DNA from: a virus
Lineage: Duplodnaviria > Caudoviricetes
IMG/VR virus record: IMGVR_UViG_3300043418_000375
Coordinates: 1,426-65,425 of that record
Direction: 5' to 3' (one strand)
Length of the DNA: 64,000 nucleotides
The position numbers were made by a program, and so were the translations under genes. Positions 7,481-47,810 of the stretch are shown piece by piece. Positions within the stretch are counted from its first letter, which is position 1. Each line of letters begins with the position of its first letter. Under the pieces are notes generated by a model. That model made no database searches, was not told where the DNA came from, and saw nothing but the letters and a program-made list of their open reading frames with translations.

Positions 7481-8436
7481 TCCGTTGCCCCCACCGCTCA
7501 CCGCTTCGGGGAAAGGTTCACATGGCTCAGTTCTCAGTGAAAATTATGCGCCTAACCGGCTCACTTCTGGGTGAAAATCAACAGGTCAGGTTCCCTGTTG
7601 CTTCGCGTGGCCAAGGAGGCGGACGTGTCCGAGTTTTTCGGGCAGGAGATGAACCGCACCACCTACAATCTCGCCCGCATGAACATGATCCTGCATGGGG
7701 TGCACTATCGTAATTTCGACCTCAAGCAGGAAGACACTCTGGAACACCCCCAGCATGACGGCATGCGGTCCGATGCTGTTGTCGCCAATCCACCTTTCAG
7801 CGCCAACTGGTCTTCCAATCCCCTGCTACTGTCCGATGACCGGTTCAGCCAGTATGGCAAATTGGCCCCGGCATCGAAGGCCGACTTCGCCTTTGTCCAG
7901 CACATGCTGCACCATTTGGACGACAACGGCACCATGGCTGTGATCCTGCCGCACGGGGCGCTGTTCCGTGGTGGGGCCGAAGGGCATATCCGCCAATACC
8001 TGATCAAGGATCGCAACTGGCTGGATGCCGTCATCGGTCTGCCTGCCAACATCTTTTACGGCACCGGCATTCCAACCTGCATCCTGGTCTTCAAGAAATG
8101 CCGCGAAACCGAGGATGTTCTGTTCGTCGATGCCTCGACCTGCTTTGAAAAGGCGACGAACCAGAACATCCTGCGTGCCGCAGACGTTGACCGCATCGTG
8201 GGCACCTTCCGCAGCCGCGCTGAAGTCGAACGCTTCAGCCATCGTGCGACCTTGGCCGAAATTACCGAGAACGACTTCAATCTGAACATCCCCCGCTATG
8301 TGGATACTTTCGAGGCTGAGGCAGAAATTGATCTGGCAACGGTCGCGGCAGAGGTGCGCGCAATCGAAGGAACCATGGCGGCTCTCGACAAGTCTATCCG
8401 TGATTTCTGTGCCGAGTTGGGGCTGGAGGCGCCAGT

Positions 8437-9681
8437 ATGATCCCTGCCGCCCCAAGACTTCGGTTTCCCGAGTTCAAAGATCCTTGGAAGCCAGGGCATG
8501 CTGGCGACGCGTTCAAGAACAGCCGCGCGAAGGGTGCTGCTGGCCTTCCCATTTATTCGGTGACGATGGATCGCGGGCTTGTGCGACGCGACAGCATAGA
8601 CAGGCACATGGCGGCCGATGCCGCAGACGGCCAGAACCTGCGCGCGCAGCGCGGCGATGTTGTCTACAACATGATGCGTATGTGGCAGGGTGCCGTTGGG
8701 CTTGCCCCTGAGGAGTGTATGGTCAGCCCGGCTTATGTCGTCCTGTCCCCGAAGAAGCACACATCACCCCAGTTCTTCGACCAGTGGTTCAAGGGCAAGC
8801 GGATGCTCTATCTCCTGGGTGCCTATTCTCACGGGATCACCAGCGACCGCCTGCGGCTTTATGCCGATGACTTTGCTCGCATTCCCGTGCATCTGCCTTC
8901 ACTTCCTGAACAGCAGAAAATCGCGGCGTTTCTTGGTGTGGTGGATGCCAAGCTTGCGGCGCTGGCGACCAAGCAGGCGGCGCTGGGGCGGTTCAAGGCT
9001 GGGCTGATGCAAAAGCTCTTCAGGCAGCAGCTTCGGTTCACCCAAGATGACGGCGCGGCCTTTCCGAATTGGGAAGAAGAACGACTAGGGGATGTCTTCA
9101 CTTGGGTGAAAACAAACAGTCTATCACGCGAGTTTTTGACTTATGACGGTGGCCTTGTTCAAAACATTCATTATGGGGATATTCACACGAAATTCCGCGC
9201 CTTGTTTCGGCAATCTGCCGAGAATGTTCCATTTATCGCACCGAACAGCGGGCTGAAGACACTCTCTGAAGAAGAATACTGCCAGATCGGGGATGTAGTT
9301 ATTGCAGACGCATCCGAGGACTTTGCCGATATTGGCAAGGCAATCGAAATCGTAGAGTTGAGTGAACGTTCATTGGTTGCGGGGCTTCACACGTACATCG
9401 CCAGACCTAAAATCGGCTCTTTAGTGTTAGGGTTCTCTGGCTATCTGTTGCGCAGCGAACCGATGCGGCGCCAGATTGTTCGGATCGCGCAAGGTATTTC
9501 CGTTTTGGGGATTTCGAAGGGAAACCTTGAAAAACTGACCTTTTGGCTTCCCCATCCCGACGAGCAACAGAAAATCGCCGATGCGCTTGCCGCAATGGAT
9601 GCCAAAATTCAGGCGGTTGCAGATCAGATCGTCAAACTGCAAATCTTCAAGAAGGGTCTGCTGCGGCAGATGTTCGCCTGA
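8437..9681 (+). CDS. hsdS: Type I R-M specificity subunit HsdS
   Basis: PRLRFPEF N-terminus; two TRDs each followed by P...EQQKIA; KKGLLRQMF C-terminus. Confidence 0.95.
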   Translation: MIPAAPRLRFPEFKDPWKPGHAGDAFKNSRAKGAAGLPIYSVTMDRGLVRRDSIDRHMAADAADGQNLRAQRGDVVYNMMRMWQGAVGLAPEECMVSPAYVVLSPKKHTSPQFFDQWFKGKRMLYLLGAYSHGITSDRLRLYADDFARIPVHLPSLPEQQKIAAFLGVVDAKLAALATKQAALGRFKAGLMQKLFRQQLRFTQDDGAAFPNWEEERLGDVFTWVKTNSLSREFLTYDGGLVQNIHYGDIHTKFRALFRQSAENVPFIAPNSGLKTLSEEEYCQIGDVVIADASEDFADIGKAIEIVELSERSLVAGLHTYIARPKIGSLVLGFSGYLLRSEPMRRQIVRIAQGISVLGISKGNLEKLTFWLPHPDEQQKIADALAAMDAKIQAVADQIVKLQIFKKGLLRQMFA

Positions 9682-16048: not shown

Positions 16049-16134
16049 CTCGCATCGCGGACCTGATCGTGAAGCAGCCGTCGCCGGCCGCGCCCGCCGG
16101 GTCGCCCGCCCTGCCCCAAAACGAGACCTGCCCT

Positions 16135-17397
16135 ATGGACCTGGTGTTCACCCCGAGCCAGATCGAGATCTGGCCGCTCGACCGGCTGCGGCCTTATGCC
16201 AAGAACGCCAAAGTCCATGGCACCGACCAAGTGGCGAAGATCGCGGCCAGCATGGCGAAGTTCGGCTGGACTGTGCCCTGCATGGTCGCCGACGATGGTG
16301 AGCTGATCGCCGGGCATGGCAGGGTGCTGGCCGCCACGATGCTGGGGCTGAAGGACGTGCCGGTGATCAGGCTCGGCCATCTCGACGAAGCAGAACGTCG
16401 GGCCTACCGGATCGCAGACAACAAGCTGACCGAACTCGGGGAATGGGACGAGGCGATGCTGCGCGAGGAGATCGCAGGGCTATTGGCTGAAGATTTCGAC
16501 CTGTCGCTGCTGGGGATCGCCGACGATGATCTCGACGCGCTGCTGCGAGATCCCGAAGCGCTGGGCGGCGATGGCCCGGCCGAGGGTGAGGATGATGTGC
16601 CCGAGCCGCCGGTCACGCCGGTTTCCGTTGCAGGCGACCTCTGGCAGCTTGGAGCGCATCGGCTCATCTGTGGCGACAGTACCTCGGCCGATGTGGTCGG
16701 ACGGTTGCTGGGCGACGTGAAGCCGCTGCTGATGGTCACCGATCCGCCCTATGGCGTGGAATATGACCCGTCTTGGCGGAATCAAGCTGGGGCAGCCAAG
16801 ACCAAACGCACCGGCAAGGTGCTAAATGACGACCGGGCAGACTGGCGCGAGGCTTGGGCGCTCTTCCCCGGCGATGTCGCCTATGTCTGGCATGGTGCAC
16901 TGCATGCCACGACCGTGGCCGAGAGCCTCGTCGCGGCAGGCTTCACCGTGCGGTCACAGATCATCTGGGCCAAGGACCGTCTGGTTCTCAGCCGGGGTGA
17001 TTATCACTGGCAGCATGAACCCTGCTGGTATGCGGTGCGCAAAACCGGCAAGGGGCATTGGGCGGGCGACCGCAAACAAACGACGCTCTGGCAGATCGCC
17101 AACAAGGATCAGGACGCCGAGACCGTGCACGGCACGCAAAAGCCGGTGGAATGTATGCGCCGCCCGATCCTAAATAACTCGAGCCCCGGCCAGGCGGTCT
17201 ATGAACCCTTCATGGGCTCGGGAACCACGCTGATTGCGGCTGAGACCACCGGACGTGTCTGCTTCGGGGTCGAACTAAACCCTGCCTATGTCGATGTTGC
17301 CATCGAACGCTGGCAGAAATTTACCGGTGTCATTGCCACACTGGCGGAAACCCGCGAGAGCTTCGCCGATCTGAAGGCCAAGCGGCTGGCGGCGTGA
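16135..17397 (+). CDS. ParB-like N-domain fused to an N4/N6 DNA methyltransferase
   Basis: LRPYAKNAKVH, IAGHGR, IADNKL; TDPPY, HGTQKPV, EPFMGSGTT. Confidence 0.93.
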   Translation: MDLVFTPSQIEIWPLDRLRPYAKNAKVHGTDQVAKIAASMAKFGWTVPCMVADDGELIAGHGRVLAATMLGLKDVPVIRLGHLDEAERRAYRIADNKLTELGEWDEAMLREEIAGLLAEDFDLSLLGIADDDLDALLRDPEALGGDGPAEGEDDVPEPPVTPVSVAGDLWQLGAHRLICGDSTSADVVGRLLGDVKPLLMVTDPPYGVEYDPSWRNQAGAAKTKRTGKVLNDDRADWREAWALFPGDVAYVWHGALHATTVAESLVAAGFTVRSQIIWAKDRLVLSRGDYHWQHEPCWYAVRKTGKGHWAGDRKQTTLWQIANKDQDAETVHGTQKPVECMRRPILNNSSPGQAVYEPFMGSGTTLIAAETTGRVCFGVELNPAYVDVAIERWQKFTGVIATLAETRESFADLKAKRLAA

Positions 17398-41623: not shown

Positions 41624-42307
41624 TCAGTTCTTGCCGCAGCACTGCTTGTATTTGCGCCCTGATCCGCAAGGGCATGGATCGTTGCGACCCGGGCGCGGCG
41701 CGGATTTGAACGGCTGGCCGGGGAGATTGGCAGGCATCGCGCGAGCTAGTTCGGGGCGCGATTGGTGCAGGATTGTCGCCACGCAGTTCGGGATCAGATC
41801 AGGGGCCTCTTTATCGATCTGGTCAATCTCTTCATCGCTGAACTTGCTGTTCCCGATGTAGATATCCTGCAGCGCCATGATGAAAATCATGGTTTCACGG
41901 GTCTCGTCATCGGCCCGATCGAGAAGGGCCTCCCAGGCCTTGGGCCGCAAGGCCATGGCGCGTGTGAAGCCATCGACCCAAGGTTCCCAGAGGGTCTCGT
42001 CGCTGTTCGTGTCGATCTCGTAGATCGGTTCAACCCAGAGCGATTGCGTGATCCGGGCAGCGATGTCGTTGTAATGGGCCATCACCGCCCCGATCGTCGC
42101 TTGCGCCGTGGCGAGGTCGGGGAATTGCGCATCCCCCGTTACACCCCAGACCTTTGAGAGCCAGTCCGAGGGAGGGATCATCTCGGGACAGGCCAGAAGG
42201 CCGGTGACGAACCCATCAAGTTCGCTCACCGTCATCGGTTCGTTCTCGACGGGCAGCGCCTGCAAGAGTTCTTCCAGACGGTCGAGCCGTTTGTCGTCCT
42301 GATCCAT
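41624..42307 (-). CDS. UPF0149/YecA-family protein with SEC-C motif
   Basis: [14 protein letters not shown]; C-terminal [18 protein letters not shown]. Confidence 0.9.
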
Positions 42308-42411
42308 GACTGGTCCCCCCCCTGCAGCTGCGCCCCCCTTAACTGCACTGGCCTAAATTCTCAATCGAACTCGTTCTGACCCGGCCGCTCGGATGGTCCG
42401 TGGAGGCATGC

Positions 42412-42771
42412 ATGAACACGTCACTTCAAGAAGGCCCAGTCATCCTGATCGGCTACGAATACCGGCTGCAGCTTCAGGCCGAGGCGGATTTGTTCCCAGA
42501 GGGGGCCAGTTTTGTGGGCCAAGTGCGCAGCACGATCGGTGCGACGACGCCGGTGGCAGAACTCTCCAGTGCGGCGGGCAGCGTGCTGCGCGTGGACGTG
42601 CGCACGCTGGAAATCGTTCTGATGCCTGACGTGACTTCCAGCCTCTCGCCAGGCGGGATTGTTCTGGATCTCGTGCGCACCGATCTGACCCCCGACCGGC
42701 ATCTCGGCTTCGTTCTGGAAATCCCTGTGGTCCTGCCGGTGACGAGGCTCCCTGTCTCTGCGGGGCTTTGA
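42412..42771 (+). CDS. Hypothetical protein (possible fibre adaptor)
   Basis: GGAGG RBS; first gene of the second fibre operon. Confidence 0.7.
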   Translation: MNTSLQEGPVILIGYEYRLQLQAEADLFPEGASFVGQVRSTIGATTPVAELSSAAGSVLRVDVRTLEIVLMPDVTSSLSPGGIVLDLVRTDLTPDRHLGFVLEIPVVLPVTRLPVSAGL

Positions 42772-42774
42772 TCC

Positions 42775-43002
42775 GTGGCGGCAGCACTTGAACTGCGGCC
42801 CCTGACCGGGCCCATCCGGCTGCATTTGAAAGCCAGTGAACCGATCCAGCTCCGCGTTCTCGCAGGGCCAGTGGCTCTGCGGCTTCTCGGCCAGCCCGGG
42901 CCCCAAGGCCGAACCGGTGTGCAAGGCGACAAGGGCGATCAAGGCACACCTGGAATCACAATTCTTCCGACCGACGCTCCCATCAACGGAGGCTTCTTCT
43001 GA
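42775..43002 (+). CDS. Short collagen-repeat protein
   Basis: GQPGPQGRTGVQGDKGDQGTPG; ends INGGFF; TGATG coupling. Confidence 0.72.
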   Translation: MAAALELRPLTGPIRLHLKASEPIQLRVLAGPVALRLLGQPGPQGRTGVQGDKGDQGTPGITILPTDAPINGGFF

Positions 43003-44642
43003 TGGCCAATACGATCCAACTCAAACGCCGTGTCTCGGGCGTAGCCGGCGCGCCGGCTGCGCTTAAATCCGGCGAGATTGCCCATAACGAGGTTGATGAC
43101 ACGCTTTATGTCGGCAAGGGCGATGATGGGGCGGGCAATGCGACCTCTGTCATCCCGCTTGCGGGCAAAGGGGCCTTTGTCGATCTCGCGGCCTCGCAAA
43201 GCATCGCCGGGGCCAAGACCTTCGCCACCGTCCCGAAATCCTCCGAGGACGCGAGTGCTGCGACAGACCTCGTGCGCAAATCCCAAGTAGATGCAGGGTT
43301 GGCCACGAAGGCCGCGCTCGCCCATGTCCATGGGCTCAGCGACGTGACGGGGCTGCAGGGCGCCCTCGATGCAAAGGCGCCGCTGGCGTCCCCTGGTCTG
43401 ACCGGCACGCCCACGGCACCTACGGCTGCGGCGGATACGAGCACCACGCAACTGGCAACGACGGCTTTCGTGCTGGGCCAAGCTGGTGCCACGGCGCCCG
43501 CGATGGACGGCACGGCCGCTGTGGGCAGTTCGACGCGCTTCGCCCGCGCAGATCACATTCATCCAAGCGATACTTCGCGCGCGCCGCTGGCCTCGCCCGG
43601 CCTGACGGGCACGCCCACCGCGCCGACGCCTGCGAACGGCACGAACACGACGCAGATAGCCACGACCGCCTTCGTGCGGGCGACCCGGCTTGATCAGCTC
43701 GCAGCCCCCGCATCGGATATCGCGCTCGGTGGCTATCGCCTGAGCGGGCTTGGTGATCCGATGGCGGCCCAGGATGCCGTGACCAAGGCCTATGTCGATC
43801 TCACGGTCCAGGGGCTCGAGCCAAAGCAATCGGTCCGCGCCGCCAGCACGGCGAATATCGCGACACTGTCCGGCCCGATGACCCTCGATGGCGTGGCGCT
43901 GGTCGCAGGCGACCGGGTGCTGGTGAAGGATCAGACGACCGCAAGTCAGAACGGCATTTATGTCGTGGCCGCCGGGGCCTGGGCCCGCTCTACAGACGCC
44001 GACACCTGGGCCAAACTGGTCTCGGCTTACGTCTTTATCGAGAGCGGCACGGTCAATGCCGACATGGGCTATCTCGCCACCGTCGATCCCGGCGGCACGC
44101 TTGGCACCACGGCCGTCACCTTCGTGCAGTTCACCGGGGCGGGGCAGATCCTGGCCGGGGCGGGCCTCGCCAAATCCGGCAACACGCTCGATGTGGGGGC
44201 CGGGACCGGCATTGCCGTGGCGGCAGATACCGTTGGGCTTACTGGACAGGCGCTGGCGCTGCACAATTTGGCGACCAACGGGCTTGTGGTCCGGACGGCC
44301 GCTGCGACGGTGGCCGCTCGGTCGATTGCAGTGAGCGGCACCGGGCTTTCTGTCTCGAATGGCGATGCGGTGGCAGGCAACCCGACCCTGAGCCTCGCCG
44401 CGGCACTGGCCAGTGTCGGGGGGCTGACCCCGGCGGCCGATCAGATCGCCTATTACAGCGGGGCCGCCACCGCGGCACTCACAGCGCTGACGGCTTTTGC
44501 CCGCACGCTTCTCGATGATGCCGATGCGGCAACCGCCCGCGCCACCCTGGGGCTCGGCTCCCTTGCCACGCAATCAGCGGCATCCGTCAGCATTACCGGC
44601 GGCACCATCAATGGCGTGGCGCTCGACGGTGGGACGTTCTGA
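43002..44642 (+). CDS. Tail fibre protein
   Basis: N-terminal IQLKR...GEIA.N; two APLASPGLTGTPTAPT..TTQ.ATTAFV repeats; GDRVLVKDQ...NGIY; ends LDGGTF. Confidence 0.85.
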   Translation: MANTIQLKRRVSGVAGAPAALKSGEIAHNEVDDTLYVGKGDDGAGNATSVIPLAGKGAFVDLAASQSIAGAKTFATVPKSSEDASAATDLVRKSQVDAGLATKAALAHVHGLSDVTGLQGALDAKAPLASPGLTGTPTAPTAAADTSTTQLATTAFVLGQAGATAPAMDGTAAVGSSTRFARADHIHPSDTSRAPLASPGLTGTPTAPTPANGTNTTQIATTAFVRATRLDQLAAPASDIALGGYRLSGLGDPMAAQDAVTKAYVDLTVQGLEPKQSVRAASTANIATLSGPMTLDGVALVAGDRVLVKDQTTASQNGIYVVAAGAWARSTDADTWAKLVSAYVFIESGTVNADMGYLATVDPGGTLGTTAVTFVQFTGAGQILAGAGLAKSGNTLDVGAGTGIAVAADTVGLTGQALALHNLATNGLVVRTAAATVAARSIAVSGTGLSVSNGDAVAGNPTLSLAAALASVGGLTPAADQIAYYSGAATAALTALTAFARTLLDDADAATARATLGLGSLATQSAASVSITGGTINGVALDGGTF

Positions 44643-44644
44643 CC

Positions 44645-45238
44645 ATGGCCAATACTTTGCTTTTGAAGCGCAGCGCGGTTGCAGGGCGCGCGCCGGTGCT
44701 TGCGGACCTTGTCCTCGGCGAGCTTGCGGTCAACGTGACAGACGGAAAGCTATATCTCAAGAAAAGCACGAGCGGCGTCGAGAGCATCGTCGATGTCACG
44801 GCTGGTGGCATGACCGATGCCGAACTCTTCGCCAAGGTGACCGCGCAAGACGGATCTGGTTCTGGGCTGGATGCCGATCTACTTGATGGCACCCAGGCCA
44901 GCGCCTTTGCGCAGCTCGCTGGGGCGACCTTCACTGGCACGGTCACAGCCCCGAACTTCGTCTCTTCGTCCGACGCGCGGCTCAAATCCGACATCGCCCC
45001 GATCCCGGATGCGCTGGCCAAGGTGCAGGCACTGACCGGCGTCACCTTCCGGATGGCCGGATCGGATACCCGCCAGATGGGTCTCATCGCACAGGAGGTG
45101 CAGCGGGTTGCGCCAGAAGCTGTGGTCGAGGCCGAAGGGGTGCTGCGCCTCGCTTACGGCAATCTCATCGGGCTCCTCGTCGAGGCCATCAAGGACCTCG
45201 CCCAAGAGGTCGATCAGCTGAAAAGGACCACCCCATGA
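44645..45238 (+). CDS. Short fibre protein with S74 intramolecular chaperone
   Basis: N-terminal LKRS...GELAVN.TDGKLY; DG.GSGLDADLLDG; SSSDARLKSDI...GLIAQEV. Confidence 0.85.
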   Translation: MANTLLLKRSAVAGRAPVLADLVLGELAVNVTDGKLYLKKSTSGVESIVDVTAGGMTDAELFAKVTAQDGSGSGLDADLLDGTQASAFAQLAGATFTGTVTAPNFVSSSDARLKSDIAPIPDALAKVQALTGVTFRMAGSDTRQMGLIAQEVQRVAPEAVVEAEGVLRLAYGNLIGLLVEAIKDLAQEVDQLKRTTP

Positions 45239-46137
45239 TCGCGAGCGGGCTTTATGCCATCACCCATTGCGGCGTACCGCGCCATTACGCGGTCGATGTC
45301 AAACCTGACTATGTCTCCGTTGCCGTCTTCGAGTTCGCAAACCCTGGCACGGCAACGGGTATGGGCGGGGTCATGCTCTGGGCAGATCTTCTGCCGCATC
45401 TCGAGGCGCGGCCTGCCTTTGGCAGTCAGGCCGGATTTGTCGACCTCGTTCATAACGAATGCTTTGTTCCGGATCTTCCCGGCGCGCCGATGGGGGCGAT
45501 TTACAAGGGCCGCTCCTGCCTCGTTGCCGGTGGCATGCGCGGACATGACGAGTTGGTCGATCACGCGCTGATCGACATGGCTGTCGGCGCCGACGGGCGG
45601 CCGCTTTCCTGGCGCAATCGCTTTGCCCGCTCCGCGCGGGAGAAGATCGACACCTCGTTCCGGTACCGGGCACGCGAAGGCATCTCGAATGCACTCGTCG
45701 TCTTTCTGCCGGTGGTGGTGCCCTTCGATCAGGCCCGGATCGAGGTTCTCTGTCAGATCCCGCCGATCCTGCTGAACGGCACGGTACAGATAGGCGAAAT
45801 TGACGATGCGACGATCCCGAAGGACGGGCTCTGGTACAAGCAGTTCTACTTCCACGCCTTGGGCCCAGAGGCGGCAACCGTGCCAGCCGGTGGGCGAGTG
45901 GATCTGCCTGTGGCACTCAAATGGAACGCGGACGGCTCCGCCTTTGCCCATGCCGTCGCGCTGAAATTGGAAAGCGACGCGGGCTATCTGCCAAAACGCC
46001 GCCTCCTCACTTCTGCTGACGGCACGGGCAGCTTTGCCATCGAGGCCTCGGGGCTCGCCTCGGGCGACCGCATCACCGTCAAACTCAACACCGAGCATTA
46101 CACTGCGATCGGCAAGATCGTGTTGGAGGTCATCTGA
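45235..46137 (+). CDS. Hypothetical protein, 300 aa, with a beta-rich (Ig-like?) C-terminus
   Basis: Coupled on both sides (ATGA, TGATG). Confidence 0.8.
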   Translation: MIASGLYAITHCGVPRHYAVDVKPDYVSVAVFEFANPGTATGMGGVMLWADLLPHLEARPAFGSQAGFVDLVHNECFVPDLPGAPMGAIYKGRSCLVAGGMRGHDELVDHALIDMAVGADGRPLSWRNRFARSAREKIDTSFRYRAREGISNALVVFLPVVVPFDQARIEVLCQIPPILLNGTVQIGEIDDATIPKDGLWYKQFYFHALGPEAATVPAGGRVDLPVALKWNADGSAFAHAVALKLESDAGYLPKRRLLTSADGTGSFAIEASGLASGDRITVKLNTEHYTAIGKIVLEVI

Positions 46138-46877
46138 TGGAAATTCCGACCACGAGTGACTTGCAGCTGATCTATCCAAGCTTCGTGCTGCACAAGCACT
46201 GGCAGATGCCTGAGGGCTTCAATGACCGCCTTTACGCGCTGGCGGCTGAGGATGCCGCGGCCCATCGCATCCAGAATGCGGGGGATGGCCGCAATGTCGG
46301 CGATACGACCAATCATCTCGGGCATCTGCGGCATAACTTCCTGATGGACCGGCAGGACCCGGCCCTCGCGGTACTGGCGCAAATGGTCGCGGCTGGCGTG
46401 CGGGAATATCTGCAACTGGCCTATGGCTATGACCATACCGGCGACATCGCCATGATGTCGGACACCTTCTGGCAGCGCAGGTCGTTGCGCGAGAACGTCG
46501 GCATCAACACCCACACCCATATCCAGAGCGACATCGTCTGCACCTATTACCCGCGGGTGGTGCTGGATGCCGATTGTCCGGACACCTCGCTGCATCGTGG
46601 AGCGGTGCGGTTTTATGATCCGGCCAATGTCGGCAAGCGGCTTTGGCCCTGTCGCAACCCGGACGCCTACACTGGCGGTTGGTATGCGGTCGAGCCCAAG
46701 GCGGGGTCCATGCTCGTCTTCGAGGGGCATCTTCCCCACGACAGCACGTTCTTCGCGGGGGAGGAGCGGATGTGCATTCCGGTCCTCTGTTCGCTCACCC
46801 TTCCGAATTCCCATTGCAAGGCCGGGCTCGCCGAGATCCTGGCCCATCAGGCACAAGGAGGCGGCCATGGCCTATAA
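46137..46877 (+). CDS. 2OG-Fe(II) oxygenase (TIGR02466-like)
   Basis: HTH...YY...F.DP...P.AG.MLVFEGHLPH......R DSBH pattern. Confidence 0.78.
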   Translation: MEIPTTSDLQLIYPSFVLHKHWQMPEGFNDRLYALAAEDAAAHRIQNAGDGRNVGDTTNHLGHLRHNFLMDRQDPALAVLAQMVAAGVREYLQLAYGYDHTGDIAMMSDTFWQRRSLRENVGINTHTHIQSDIVCTYYPRVVLDADCPDTSLHRGAVRFYDPANVGKRLWPCRNPDAYTGGWYAVEPKAGSMLVFEGHLPHDSTFFAGEERMCIPVLCSLTLPNSHCKAGLAEILAHQAQGGGHGL

Positions 46878-47181
46878 GGTTGGAACCACCATCGTGATCG
46901 ATGACACGGGCTTTGTGGATTGGGCGCGTATCGCCAACAAGCCGGTCATCGGCACCGGGGATGTCAGCGAAGTGGCTTTGGTAAATGGGGTGCCGAGTTC
47001 TGGCGCTACGGGAGTTGCGACGGGGGCGGTTTACGGGTCTGGCGGCATCAACAGCGGGTTTGGCGGCACCACAACCTACAATTGCTATATCGAAAGCCTG
47101 TCGGGCGGCGGGACTGGGGCCACCATCACGATCACCGCCAACCGCAAGAGCTTCAACTGCAACTGCGCCTGCCGGTGCTGA
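46867..47181 (+). CDS. 104-aa Gly/Thr-rich protein ending NCNCACRC; putative modified substrate/fibre-tip protein
   Basis: AAGGAGG RBS; MAYKVGTTIVIDD N-terminus; C-x-C-x-C-x-C directly before the stop. Confidence 0.8.
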   Translation: MAYKVGTTIVIDDTGFVDWARIANKPVIGTGDVSEVALVNGVPSSGATGVATGAVYGSGGINSGFGGTTTYNCYIESLSGGGTGATITITANRKSFNCNCACRC

Positions 47182-47183
47182 AA

Positions 47184-47810
47184 ATGGAGGTTCGCAGCAC
47201 GCGCCTGGAGCTCTGGCCGACCCGGGTCAGTTTTTTTGAAACCCCCGTCGATTGGCCGGTAAACCGGCAATTGGCCGATGAAGCCATTGCCACTGTCGCG
47301 CACCGGGGCGCGCGGCTTTCTGCGGCCGAGCGGCGGGTGCGGGGCATCCTTGAGAGAAGCGCGGCTGGCCAGTCCCTGAAATCCCATCTCTTCGCCTGTG
47401 CGCGTGCCGTGCTTGGTCCCTGGGCGCCCTATCTCGATCCCCACCATTGCGAAAACCGTGCCCTCGTCATCGAGCCGGGTGGGTTCATCTCGACCCACAA
47501 GGACAGCCGCGAGGGGGATCTCACTTGCGTGCACTTCCTGACCGGCGGTGGGGCGGGGCAGTCGGTGAACTCTGTCGGCACCCCGCGCTTCGTGGTCGAG
47601 GATCCGTCGCGGTATTTTGACGAGGGACGGTTGCCGTTTGAGAGCCGCCATGGCTTCTCGGTCAATCCGCGCCCCGGGCTCTCGATCTTCTTCCCCTCCC
47701 ACATTCCCCACAACCAGCACCCCTATGAGGGCAGCACGCCGCATGTTCAGGTCGTCGCGAACTTCCGCGTCAATCTGCCTGTGGTGATCGAAGAAAGGCT
47801 ATTTGACTGA
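47184..47810 (+). CDS. 2OG-Fe(II) oxygenase
   Basis: HKD (HxD)...EDP...PRPGLSIFFPSHIPH...NF. Confidence 0.78.
   Translation: MEVRSTRLELWPTRVSFFETPVDWPVNRQLADEAIATVAHRGARLSAAERRVRGILERSAAGQSLKSHLFACARAVLGPWAPYLDPHHCENRALVIEPGGFISTHKDSREGDLTCVHFLTGGGAGQSVNSVGTPRFVVEDPSRYFDEGRLPFESRHGFSVNPRPGLSIFFPSHIPHNQHPYEGSTPHVQVVANFRVNLPVVIEERLFD

Follow-up and report, generated by a model that had tools for sequence, protein, structure and literature searches.

The sub104 gene and its operon

In this work we analyzed a 64,000 nt stretch of viral DNA (the window), which covers positions 1,426 to 65,425 of IMG/VR record IMGVR_UViG_3300043418_000375 and is nearly all of that 65,425 nt record. Attention was on a 104 aa fibre-like protein with a terminal NCNCACRC tail, encoded by the open reading frame (ORF) at 46867-47181 on the + strand and here named sub104, and on the radical S-adenosylmethionine (SAM)/SPASM enzyme encoded downstream, which is proposed to modify this tail. 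The window carries genes for a large terminase, portal, protease, major head protein, tape measure and distal tail protein, as well as a J-like central fibre, an S74 fibre, holin and lysozyme, which together identify a lambda-like siphovirus; the phage is read as a prophage of a freshwater Rhodobacteraceae host. The sub104 gene is the seventh of an operon spanning 42400-49093 (+), in which two small genes are followed by a 546 aa fibre, an S74 fibre, p300, ox1, sub104, ox2 and the radical SAM/SPASM enzyme. Between the S74 fibre, whose stop overlaps the p300 start, and the enzyme, neighbouring genes overlap or directly adjoin at their stop and start codons, and the genes from the fibres through the enzyme are translationally coupled. 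The gene directly after the enzyme lies on the opposite strand. The features of the operon are as follows.

42400-43002, + strand: two small genes (123 aa; 75 aa with collagen-like G-x-y repeats), synteny conserved in Rhodobacteraceae loci
43002-44642, + strand: tail fibre of 546 aa, matching PHROG tail-fibre families down to 7e-40
44645-45238, + strand: short tail fibre of 197 aa with Peptidase_S74 self-cleaving chaperone (PF13884, 4.5e-16) and many PHROG tail-fibre matches
45235-46137, + strand: p300, 300 aa, with a C-terminal immunoglobulin (Ig)-like domain of Big/intimin type
46137-46877, + strand: ox1, 246 aa, 2-oxoglutarate (2OG)-Fe(II)-oxygenase-like (PF13759, 29 bits, cut-off 27)
46855-46861, + strand: Shine-Dalgarno sequence AAGGAGG with a 5 nt spacer to the ATG, read directly from the sequence
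46867-47181, + strand: sub104, 104 aa, ATG at 46867, TGA at 47179-47181, 88 homologues
46867-46956, + strand: sub104 residues 1-30, near-invariant N-terminal module (N-module) MAYKVGTTIVIDD.G.VDW.RI.NKP
47005-47079, + strand: sub104 residues 47-71, hypervariable, indel-rich centre
47080-47154, + strand: sub104 residues 72-96, conserved beta region NCY[VI]ESLSGGG...TITANR..F with the internal Cys73
47155-47178, + strand: sub104 residues 97-104, NCNCACRC tail, proposed modification site
47184-47810, + strand: ox2, 208 aa, second oxygenase-like protein (phrog_81, 1.2e-5; no Pfam match)
47810-49093, + strand: radical SAM/SPASM enzyme, 427 aa, proposed modifier (PF04055, TIGR04085, phrog_1802)

An earlier note on this DNA had placed the start of the gene at 46867 behind a strong AAGGAGG ribosome-binding site. 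Both are present there, and since 82 of the 88 homologues begin at MAYKVG this start is right, the mechanically called ORF of 204 aa (46567-47181), which begins 300 nt before the ATG, being too long at its upstream end. Read directly from the sequence, residues 1-13 are MAYKVGTTIVIDD and are followed by W19..I22.N24-K25-P26. The W..I.NKP motif, the Gly/Thr-rich body, the internal NC and the four alternating terminal Cys that had been described can all be found in the protein: 104 residues include 18 G, 13 T, 10 A and 8 S, with G+T+S+A accounting for 38 of the 66 residues between 31 and 96, and Cys occurs at positions 73 (after N72), 98, 100, 102 and 104, C104 being the final residue.

A word-indexed search returned 121 candidates, 88 of which were accepted as sub104 relatives at E <= 0.01; most are metagenomic and a few come from named Rhodobacteraceae. 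The tail, whose lack of conservation among homologues would have refuted the reading of the earlier note, is kept as NCNCxCxC(xC) in 78 of the 88, with the stop always right after the final Cys, and 74 of them combine this end with the MAYKVG start. The ten homologues lacking the tail are frameshifted or fragmentary. A clean alignment of 72 sequences, in which N97, C98, N99, C100, C102 and C104 are invariant, was used to calculate the consensus fraction, i.e., the mean share of sequences carrying the consensus residue. This fraction is 0.91 for residues 1-30, 0.26 for residues 47-71 (gap fraction 0.32), 0.78 for residues 72-96 and 0.94 for the tail, in agreement with the conserved termini and variable centre that the earlier note had expected. 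Two longer or fused forms of sub104 were also matched; these look like frameshift or fusion artefacts and were set aside. The family member L052 (7001-7291) has a run of eight prolines directly before its tail (…YYNCYVPPPPPPPPANCNCACYC), as if a rigid spacer had been placed there. A protein atlas search gave only leads scoring below 0.9 for sub104 and p300.

Association of the enzyme with alternating-Cys tails

The enzyme scored 35.9 bits against PF04055 (cut-off 29.5), 31.5 bits against the SPASM model TIGR04085 (cut-off 27) and 4e-52 against phrog_1802. Its radical SAM motif C67-N-Y-x-C71-x-Y-C74 was invariant in seven of seven diverse homologues, and the seven SPASM Cys (C299, C318, C352, C355, C361, C365 and C377) were likewise invariant among diverse homologues. 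Judged by these residues, the enzyme appears to share its three-cluster architecture with enzymes that cross-link peptides and proteins, and it looks competent. An N-terminal extension of about 60 aa precedes the core. The nearest named NCBIfam models, which represent thioether-forming peptide maturases, were PapB (60.7 bits, cut-off 340), nif11 (59.2, cut-off 518.7), QhpD (44.7, cut-off 453) and CcpM (40.5, cut-off 500); SCIFF scored 31.3 (cut-off 425), all of these maturase matches being confined to the radical SAM core at approximately residues 59-171. A sequence search of the PDB with the enzyme returned only weak core matches (8vpo_A, 1e-6; 9gm3_A, 4e-6). Searching 50,697 phage records with sub104 by tblastn gave no match at E <= 1, and cultured relatives were reached only via the enzyme, homologues of which with about 39% identity are found in the Achromobacter phages JWF and 2-1 and in the Ralstonia phage RSP15, in each case just after tail-fibre genes. 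The JWF enzyme carries the annotation anaerobic sulfatase-maturating enzyme (anSME). In L063 a second, shorter radical SAM enzyme (332 aa, 8177-9175) lies between p300 and the main enzyme; the 106 kb viral contig of this locus also holds a second copy of p300 and an ox1 homologue.

The enzyme follows sub104 in 20 of the 24 Rhodobacteraceae genome loci, three of the others being cut by a contig end and one (L011) looking decayed. Cultured lysogens with the cluster include Seohaeicola saemankumensis ac14, Thioclava sp. A2 and Thalassobacter stenotrophicus CECT 5294. It likewise follows sub104 in 34 of the 39 viral loci found with the sub104 family, the remaining five ending before the position of the enzyme. 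Across the Rhodobacteraceae loci the enzyme is 80-90% identical and sub104 only 47-65%, a pattern consistent with a surface protein that diversifies while the machinery maturing it is conserved. A scan of viral contigs with the enzyme alignment yielded at least 535 confirmed stretches, of which the best 80 were examined; 72 of these had at least 1500 nt of upstream sequence. In 63 of these 72 enzyme loci an ORF located upstream on the same strand has four or more alternating Cys, compared to 2 of 3224 ORFs in a minus-strand control. Of the 72 loci, 21 are closely related to this prophage, and among the other 51 the motif was found in 42. In 59 loci the Cys run lies no more than 12 residues from the C-terminus; in two others a Hint-like CF.(A/P)G comes immediately after it, and in the last two it is internal (L091, with Hint-like sequence further on, and L114, which is doubtful). 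With a linkage this tight, the label of candidate substrate that sub104 had been given is well founded, and we infer that the tail is the substrate of the enzyme.

The tail could instead stay unmodified, its 12 thiols in the trimer binding a metal or an iron-sulfur (Fe-S) cluster on the three-fold axis or forming inter-chain disulfides after lysis, with the enzyme acting on another fibre component. Metal binding or cross-linking of this kind had been proposed in the earlier note and has structural parallels: T4 gp37 has an HxH-iron needle at the trimeric fibre tip, and the lambda tail-tip protein gpL reportedly holds an Fe-S cluster. Like sub104, these two would place alternating ligand-type residues at the extreme trimeric tip (a structural analogy), but they assemble without a dedicated enzyme, whereas here the ligands would be Cys and are genetically tied to a radical SAM enzyme. 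Metal binding requires no such enzyme, and the co-occurrence of enzyme and tail across carriers that share nothing else is hard to explain on these terms. We therefore consider an unmodified tail very improbable, and the link to the enzyme makes a covalent modification of the tail more plausible than metal binding by itself. The terminal CxC could also suggest prenylation, a reading that was dropped as the cluster holds no transferase.

The scan identified 61 distinct carrier ORFs, ranging from small proteins to tail fibres of 300-555 aa, and in their runs Asn precedes 172 of 294 Cys. All six tested carriers of at least 300 aa match PHROG tail-fibre families, and five small or other carriers that were tested gave no PHROG match. 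The large carriers do not have the MAYKVG module, which means that the enzyme must recognise the tail region (often [RK]..[FY]-NCNC) and not an N-terminal leader; this argues against a classical leader-dependent ribosomally synthesised and post-translationally modified peptide (RiPP). In the Achromobacter phage JWF the carrier is gp028 (483 aa; L025, 4736-6187), in which ...RQNCNCDCNCNCS with the run NCNCDCNCNCS is followed by a Hint domain from Cys308, so that Hint self-cleavage would leave an (N-C)n C-terminus. The side tail fibre of RSP15 ends in NTNCQCGN. Tail fibres with a Hint (intein-like) domain immediately after the (N-C)n run were also seen in L100 and L101 (3749-5170) and in L107 (4659-5486). 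The Hint domain of these fibres would be a self-cleaving module in place of the S74 chaperone, exposing the Cys run as a new C-terminus.

The tail might also be a substrate for a chemistry other than thioether formation, such as epimerisation of alternate residues to the D-configuration or, as in anSME, conversion of Cys to formylglycine. Radical SAM epimerases are known to act in proteusins and epipeptides, and the every-second-residue pattern of the runs, with its dominant Asn, resembles alternating D/L patterns. The anSME annotation in JWF also speaks for another chemistry, as does the presence of a full SPASM domain with no detectable RiPP recognition element (RRE), which is the situation in anSME. 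However, the enzyme reaches only 34.3 bits with the anSME model TIGR03942 (cut-off 349.45), the NCNCACRC tail does not contain C/S-x-P/A-x-R, the motif targeted by anSME, and the Cys-rich substrates known for characterised SPASM enzymes are thioether substrates, CrpA being a recent case. Such other chemistry appears unlikely.

The fibre module and the trimer model

An exhaustive profile search with the sub104 family gave 44 matches at E <= 0.001 and recovered distant small proteins of 67-130 aa which share the N-module M[AT][YF]K[VI]G.T.VID..G.[IV]DW.RI. Their alternating-Cys tails vary (NCNCNCYC, NCNCDCVCACFCDGG, NCNCNCQCSVNCNC), and some proteins bear the N-module without any Cys tail. Six copies of the sub104 N-module (E 6e-9) are present in P0100, a 1601 aa fibre with an S74-type chaperone region at its end, and W.RISGKP repeats were found by the profile search in P0123. 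Another match, P0112 (1440 aa, E 3e-5), was disregarded as a repetitive and apparently unrelated protein. The existence of N-module proteins without a Cys tail, together with the six modules in P0100, shows that the N-module and the Cys tail are separable; by sequence comparison the N-module appears to be a fibre-shaft unit. The gene itself sits in a tail-fibre gene module, being coupled to two fibre genes in an order that is repeated in the Rhodobacteraceae loci. The fibre-like character once proposed from motif resemblance is supported by the modules of P0100, the repeats of P0123 and the location in the operon.

In distant phages the small tailed genes come after an S74 fibre. Two or three small N-module genes follow the S74 fibre in tandem in L064 (6823-7446), L060 (1306-1987) and L107 (4659-5985), and of the encoded proteins some have extreme tails (TNCACVCACCCCCACCCNC) and some no Cys at all. 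These tandem proteins could represent alternative tips or form a heterotrimer.

A model of three sub104 copies gave values of 0.75, 0.76 and 0.77 for the interface score ipSAE (score 0.76), compared to 0.00 for the best of three controls; in a calibration with two copies and own alignments, 20 of 30 solved pairs and 1 of 23 single chains came up to the mark for this score. The partner predicted local distance difference test (pLDDT) value was 72, and contacts agreed to at least 66%, with an interface formed by residues 10-38 and 72-94. These predictions favour a homotrimer, which supports the trimeric state suggested at the outset. In the monomer model the pLDDT falls below 50 in the centre at residues 47-71.

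These results bear on a further possibility, namely that sub104 is a RiPP precursor and not a part of the virion. Residues 1 to approximately 82, up to SLSGGG, would then be a leader, and a core of about 22 residues (…TITANRKSFNCNCACRC), altered by both the oxygenases and the radical SAM enzyme, would be released as a bioactive peptide, for example at lysis. The layout of the protein is RiPP-like (conserved N-terminus, variable middle and Cys-rich C-terminus), a GGG motif lies about 22 residues before its end, the tandem small genes of L060, L064 and L107 resemble precursor arrays, and a nif11-type peptide maturase is the second-best NCBIfam match of the enzyme. However, no peptidase or exporter was seen in the operon of the window or in the distant loci that were read, the GG motif is missing from distant family members, and bona fide tail fibres of 300-555 aa end in the same tail without any such leader. 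The supposed leader moreover contains the repeat unit of the long fibre P0100, Cys-free N-module proteins adjoin the tailed ones, and the interface of the trimer model includes both 'leader' and 'core'. That enzyme and tail are associated across lineages and that the large carriers are fibres speaks against this explanation, as it does against an unmodified tail, and a RiPP precursor is in our view quite improbable.

Proposed maturation, known systems and neighbouring genes

Taken together, we judge it probable, with some reserve, that sub104 is a small homotrimeric component of the tail fibre and that its (N-C)n tail is the substrate of the radical SAM/SPASM enzyme, with a thioether as the likeliest product. 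In such a scheme the N-terminal module (residues 1-30) would serve as a fibre-shaft or trimerisation unit, and the hypervariable centre (47-71) would be exposed and probably receptor-facing. The enzyme would act on the fibre C-terminus in the cytoplasm before release, linking the tail thiols to nearby residues through thioethers (sactionine or ranthionine) and so producing a compact knot at the fibre end, resistant to redox changes and proteases. In this phage group ox1 and ox2 might add further tailoring, e.g., hydroxylation of residues such as Asn, and p300 might be a partner, either a chaperone presenting the substrate or a structural adaptor. To our knowledge, every characterised SPASM enzyme acting on Cys-rich ribosomal substrates forms thioethers. 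A more specific version, in which inter-chain thioethers join the three (N-C)n tails, possibly onto hydroxylated Asn, as a covalent redox-proof staple at the receptor-binding tip, seems unlikely; if true, phages would employ radical SAM chemistry in building their virions, and fibres would have a counterpart to capsid chainmail, spread over more than 500 phage genomes that include siphoviruses, myoviruses and other types.

It should be noted that a number of observations weigh against the modification of a trimeric fibre tail by this enzyme. The thioether chemistry, although likeliest, is proposed by analogy. With maturase scores far below the cut-offs, the enzyme falls into no characterised subfamily, and domain and family searches of the operon proteins detected no RRE, leader peptidase or exporter, the missing RRE being a point against. 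The sub104 protein matches no Pfam, NCBIfam or PHROG family, and its monomer model, of moderate quality (pLDDT 64.6), has strands at 35-40, 73-81 and 86-95 with a disordered tail and finds no PDB fold match by Foldseek at E <= 0.001. In the trimer model the tail residues 95-104 are not in confident contacts. SLSGGG could be read as a double-glycine leader cleavage site, and radical SAM chemistry needs reducing conditions whereas 2OG oxygenases need O2, which puts the order and compatibility of the steps in question. As to the association, the motif matches in L088 (a low-complexity ORF with a C-terminal run) and L114 look spurious, and 9 of the 72 enzyme loci have no strict Cys run. Of these nine, L106 and L134 have looser Cys-rich tails, L145 is truncated, L103, L104, L118 and L123 are in a different context where FAD-binding (GxGxxG) enzyme-like genes, and no fibres, adjoin the enzyme, and two are unassigned.

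The relatives of the enzyme in L103, L104, L118 and L123 (41-45% identity) are encoded on AT-rich viral contigs with no Cys-run ORF. This branch may have another substrate.

Known systems offer partial parallels for a modified fibre tail. QhpC is a protein of about 100 aa which becomes a subunit of a larger assembly, quinohemoprotein amine dehydrogenase (QHNDH). In the CrpC/CrpA system of Methanococcus voltae a SPASM enzyme cross-links a whole protein, and QHNDH is cited alongside it (PMC13692751). CrpC and QhpD are both SPASM radical SAM enzymes whose thioether targets are whole proteins instead of natural-product peptides (PMC13692751), as would be the case here. However, CrpC contains an RRE and acts on a 28.8 kDa archaeal protein with no role assigned, and the QhpD model gives the enzyme of the sub104 operon only the 44.7 bits reported above; the two systems belong neither to viruses nor to structural proteins, and both lack an (N-C)n motif. 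Sactipeptide and ranthipeptide maturation (PapB, SCIFF maturase, CcpM, NxxcB) is similar in that the gene for a SPASM enzyme lies beside that for a ribosomal substrate with a Cys-rich C-terminal region. Asn is a known thioether acceptor in the NxxC class. Unlike the short leader-core peptides of those systems, the substrate here would be a folded, probably trimeric fibre protein or a fibre of 300-555 aa; RRE, peptidase and exporter are missing, scores are far below the cut-offs and the genes lie in a virion tail module. Peptidase_S74 fibres resemble the system in that fibre C-termini are matured after trimerisation, and S74 fibres stand directly before the small tailed proteins; in JWF, L100 and L101 the Hint domain after the (N-C)n run is placed where a self-cleaving module would sit. 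S74 and Hint modules are autoproteolytic and involve no chemistry on a Cys run, whereas here a separate redox enzyme would be dedicated to the fibre end.

Full-text searches, with subscription journals and supplementary files outside their scope, did not find phage fibres described as targets of a radical SAM enzyme, nor any account of an (N-C)n fibre tail. The finding extends to a widespread and apparently undescribed phage system, the kind itself, radical SAM/SPASM modification of Cys-rich ribosomal substrates, being known. If true, RiPP-type chemistry would reach from secreted peptides to virion architecture, phrog_1802, a radical SAM family widespread among phages and present in at least 535 viral stretches, would gain a function, and a recurrent, unannotated C-terminal motif of fibres would be accounted for. 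It would also define an accessory gene set on which the folding or stability of engineered or heterologously produced fibres and receptor-binding proteins may depend, and offer enzymology a simple repetitive substrate of 8-12 residues.

Among the partner proteins, p300 matches no sequence family in Pfam, NCBIfam or PHROG. Its AlphaFold2 model has a pLDDT of 89, and residues 202-300 match Ig-like domains with Z of approximately 10; the N-domain (1-200) gave no clear fold match, the result lists being filled by the Ig-like C-domain. RSP15 ORF047 is a p300 homologue (E 2e-19). In ox1 the putative metal ligands H126, H128 and H201 are invariant in 18 of 18 sequences, the score against TIGR02466 is 28.5 bits (cut-off 62.5), and a PDB sequence search returned nothing meaningful. 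In ox2 the putative ligands H105-x-D107 and H176/H179 are invariant in 21 of 21. No counterpart was found in JWF or RSP15 with the profiles of ox1 and ox2, and Pfam gave nothing for RSP15 ORF046 or JWF gp029; an HKD motif seen by eye in RSP15 ORF046 is unsupported, there being no Pfam match. Profile matches among the 72 enzyme loci amounted to 49 for p300, 30 for ox1 and 41 for ox2, which makes the carrier and the enzyme, usually with p300, the core set, the oxygenases being accessory. L011 (6270-8698), from a Rhodobacteraceae metagenome-assembled genome, looks like a decaying copy: the p300 and ox1 genes are each broken up between frames, ox2 is shortened, and a radical SAM enzyme could not be detected.

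Overlap with the operon was seen for two contigs from metatranscriptomes, X23 (248 nt, identical, 47624-47871) and X24 (239 nt, 33 differences, 47035-47267). They were not counted as evidence of expression, since DNA carry-over is possible and contigs cannot show transcription.

Elsewhere in the window, a 3539 aa ORF directly after the operon (49455-60074, - strand) contains many Ca-binding RTX-type and VCBS-like repeats and probably belongs to the host flank or is cargo carried where the prophage ends. A gene for a UPF0149 and SEC-C motif protein (41624-42307, - strand) separates the second fibre module from the lysis genes and has the look of a moron-like insertion. In the early prophage region (16069-17397, + strand) a ParB-like nuclease domain is fused to a DNA methyltransferase (phrog_498, 2e-151; phrog_620).

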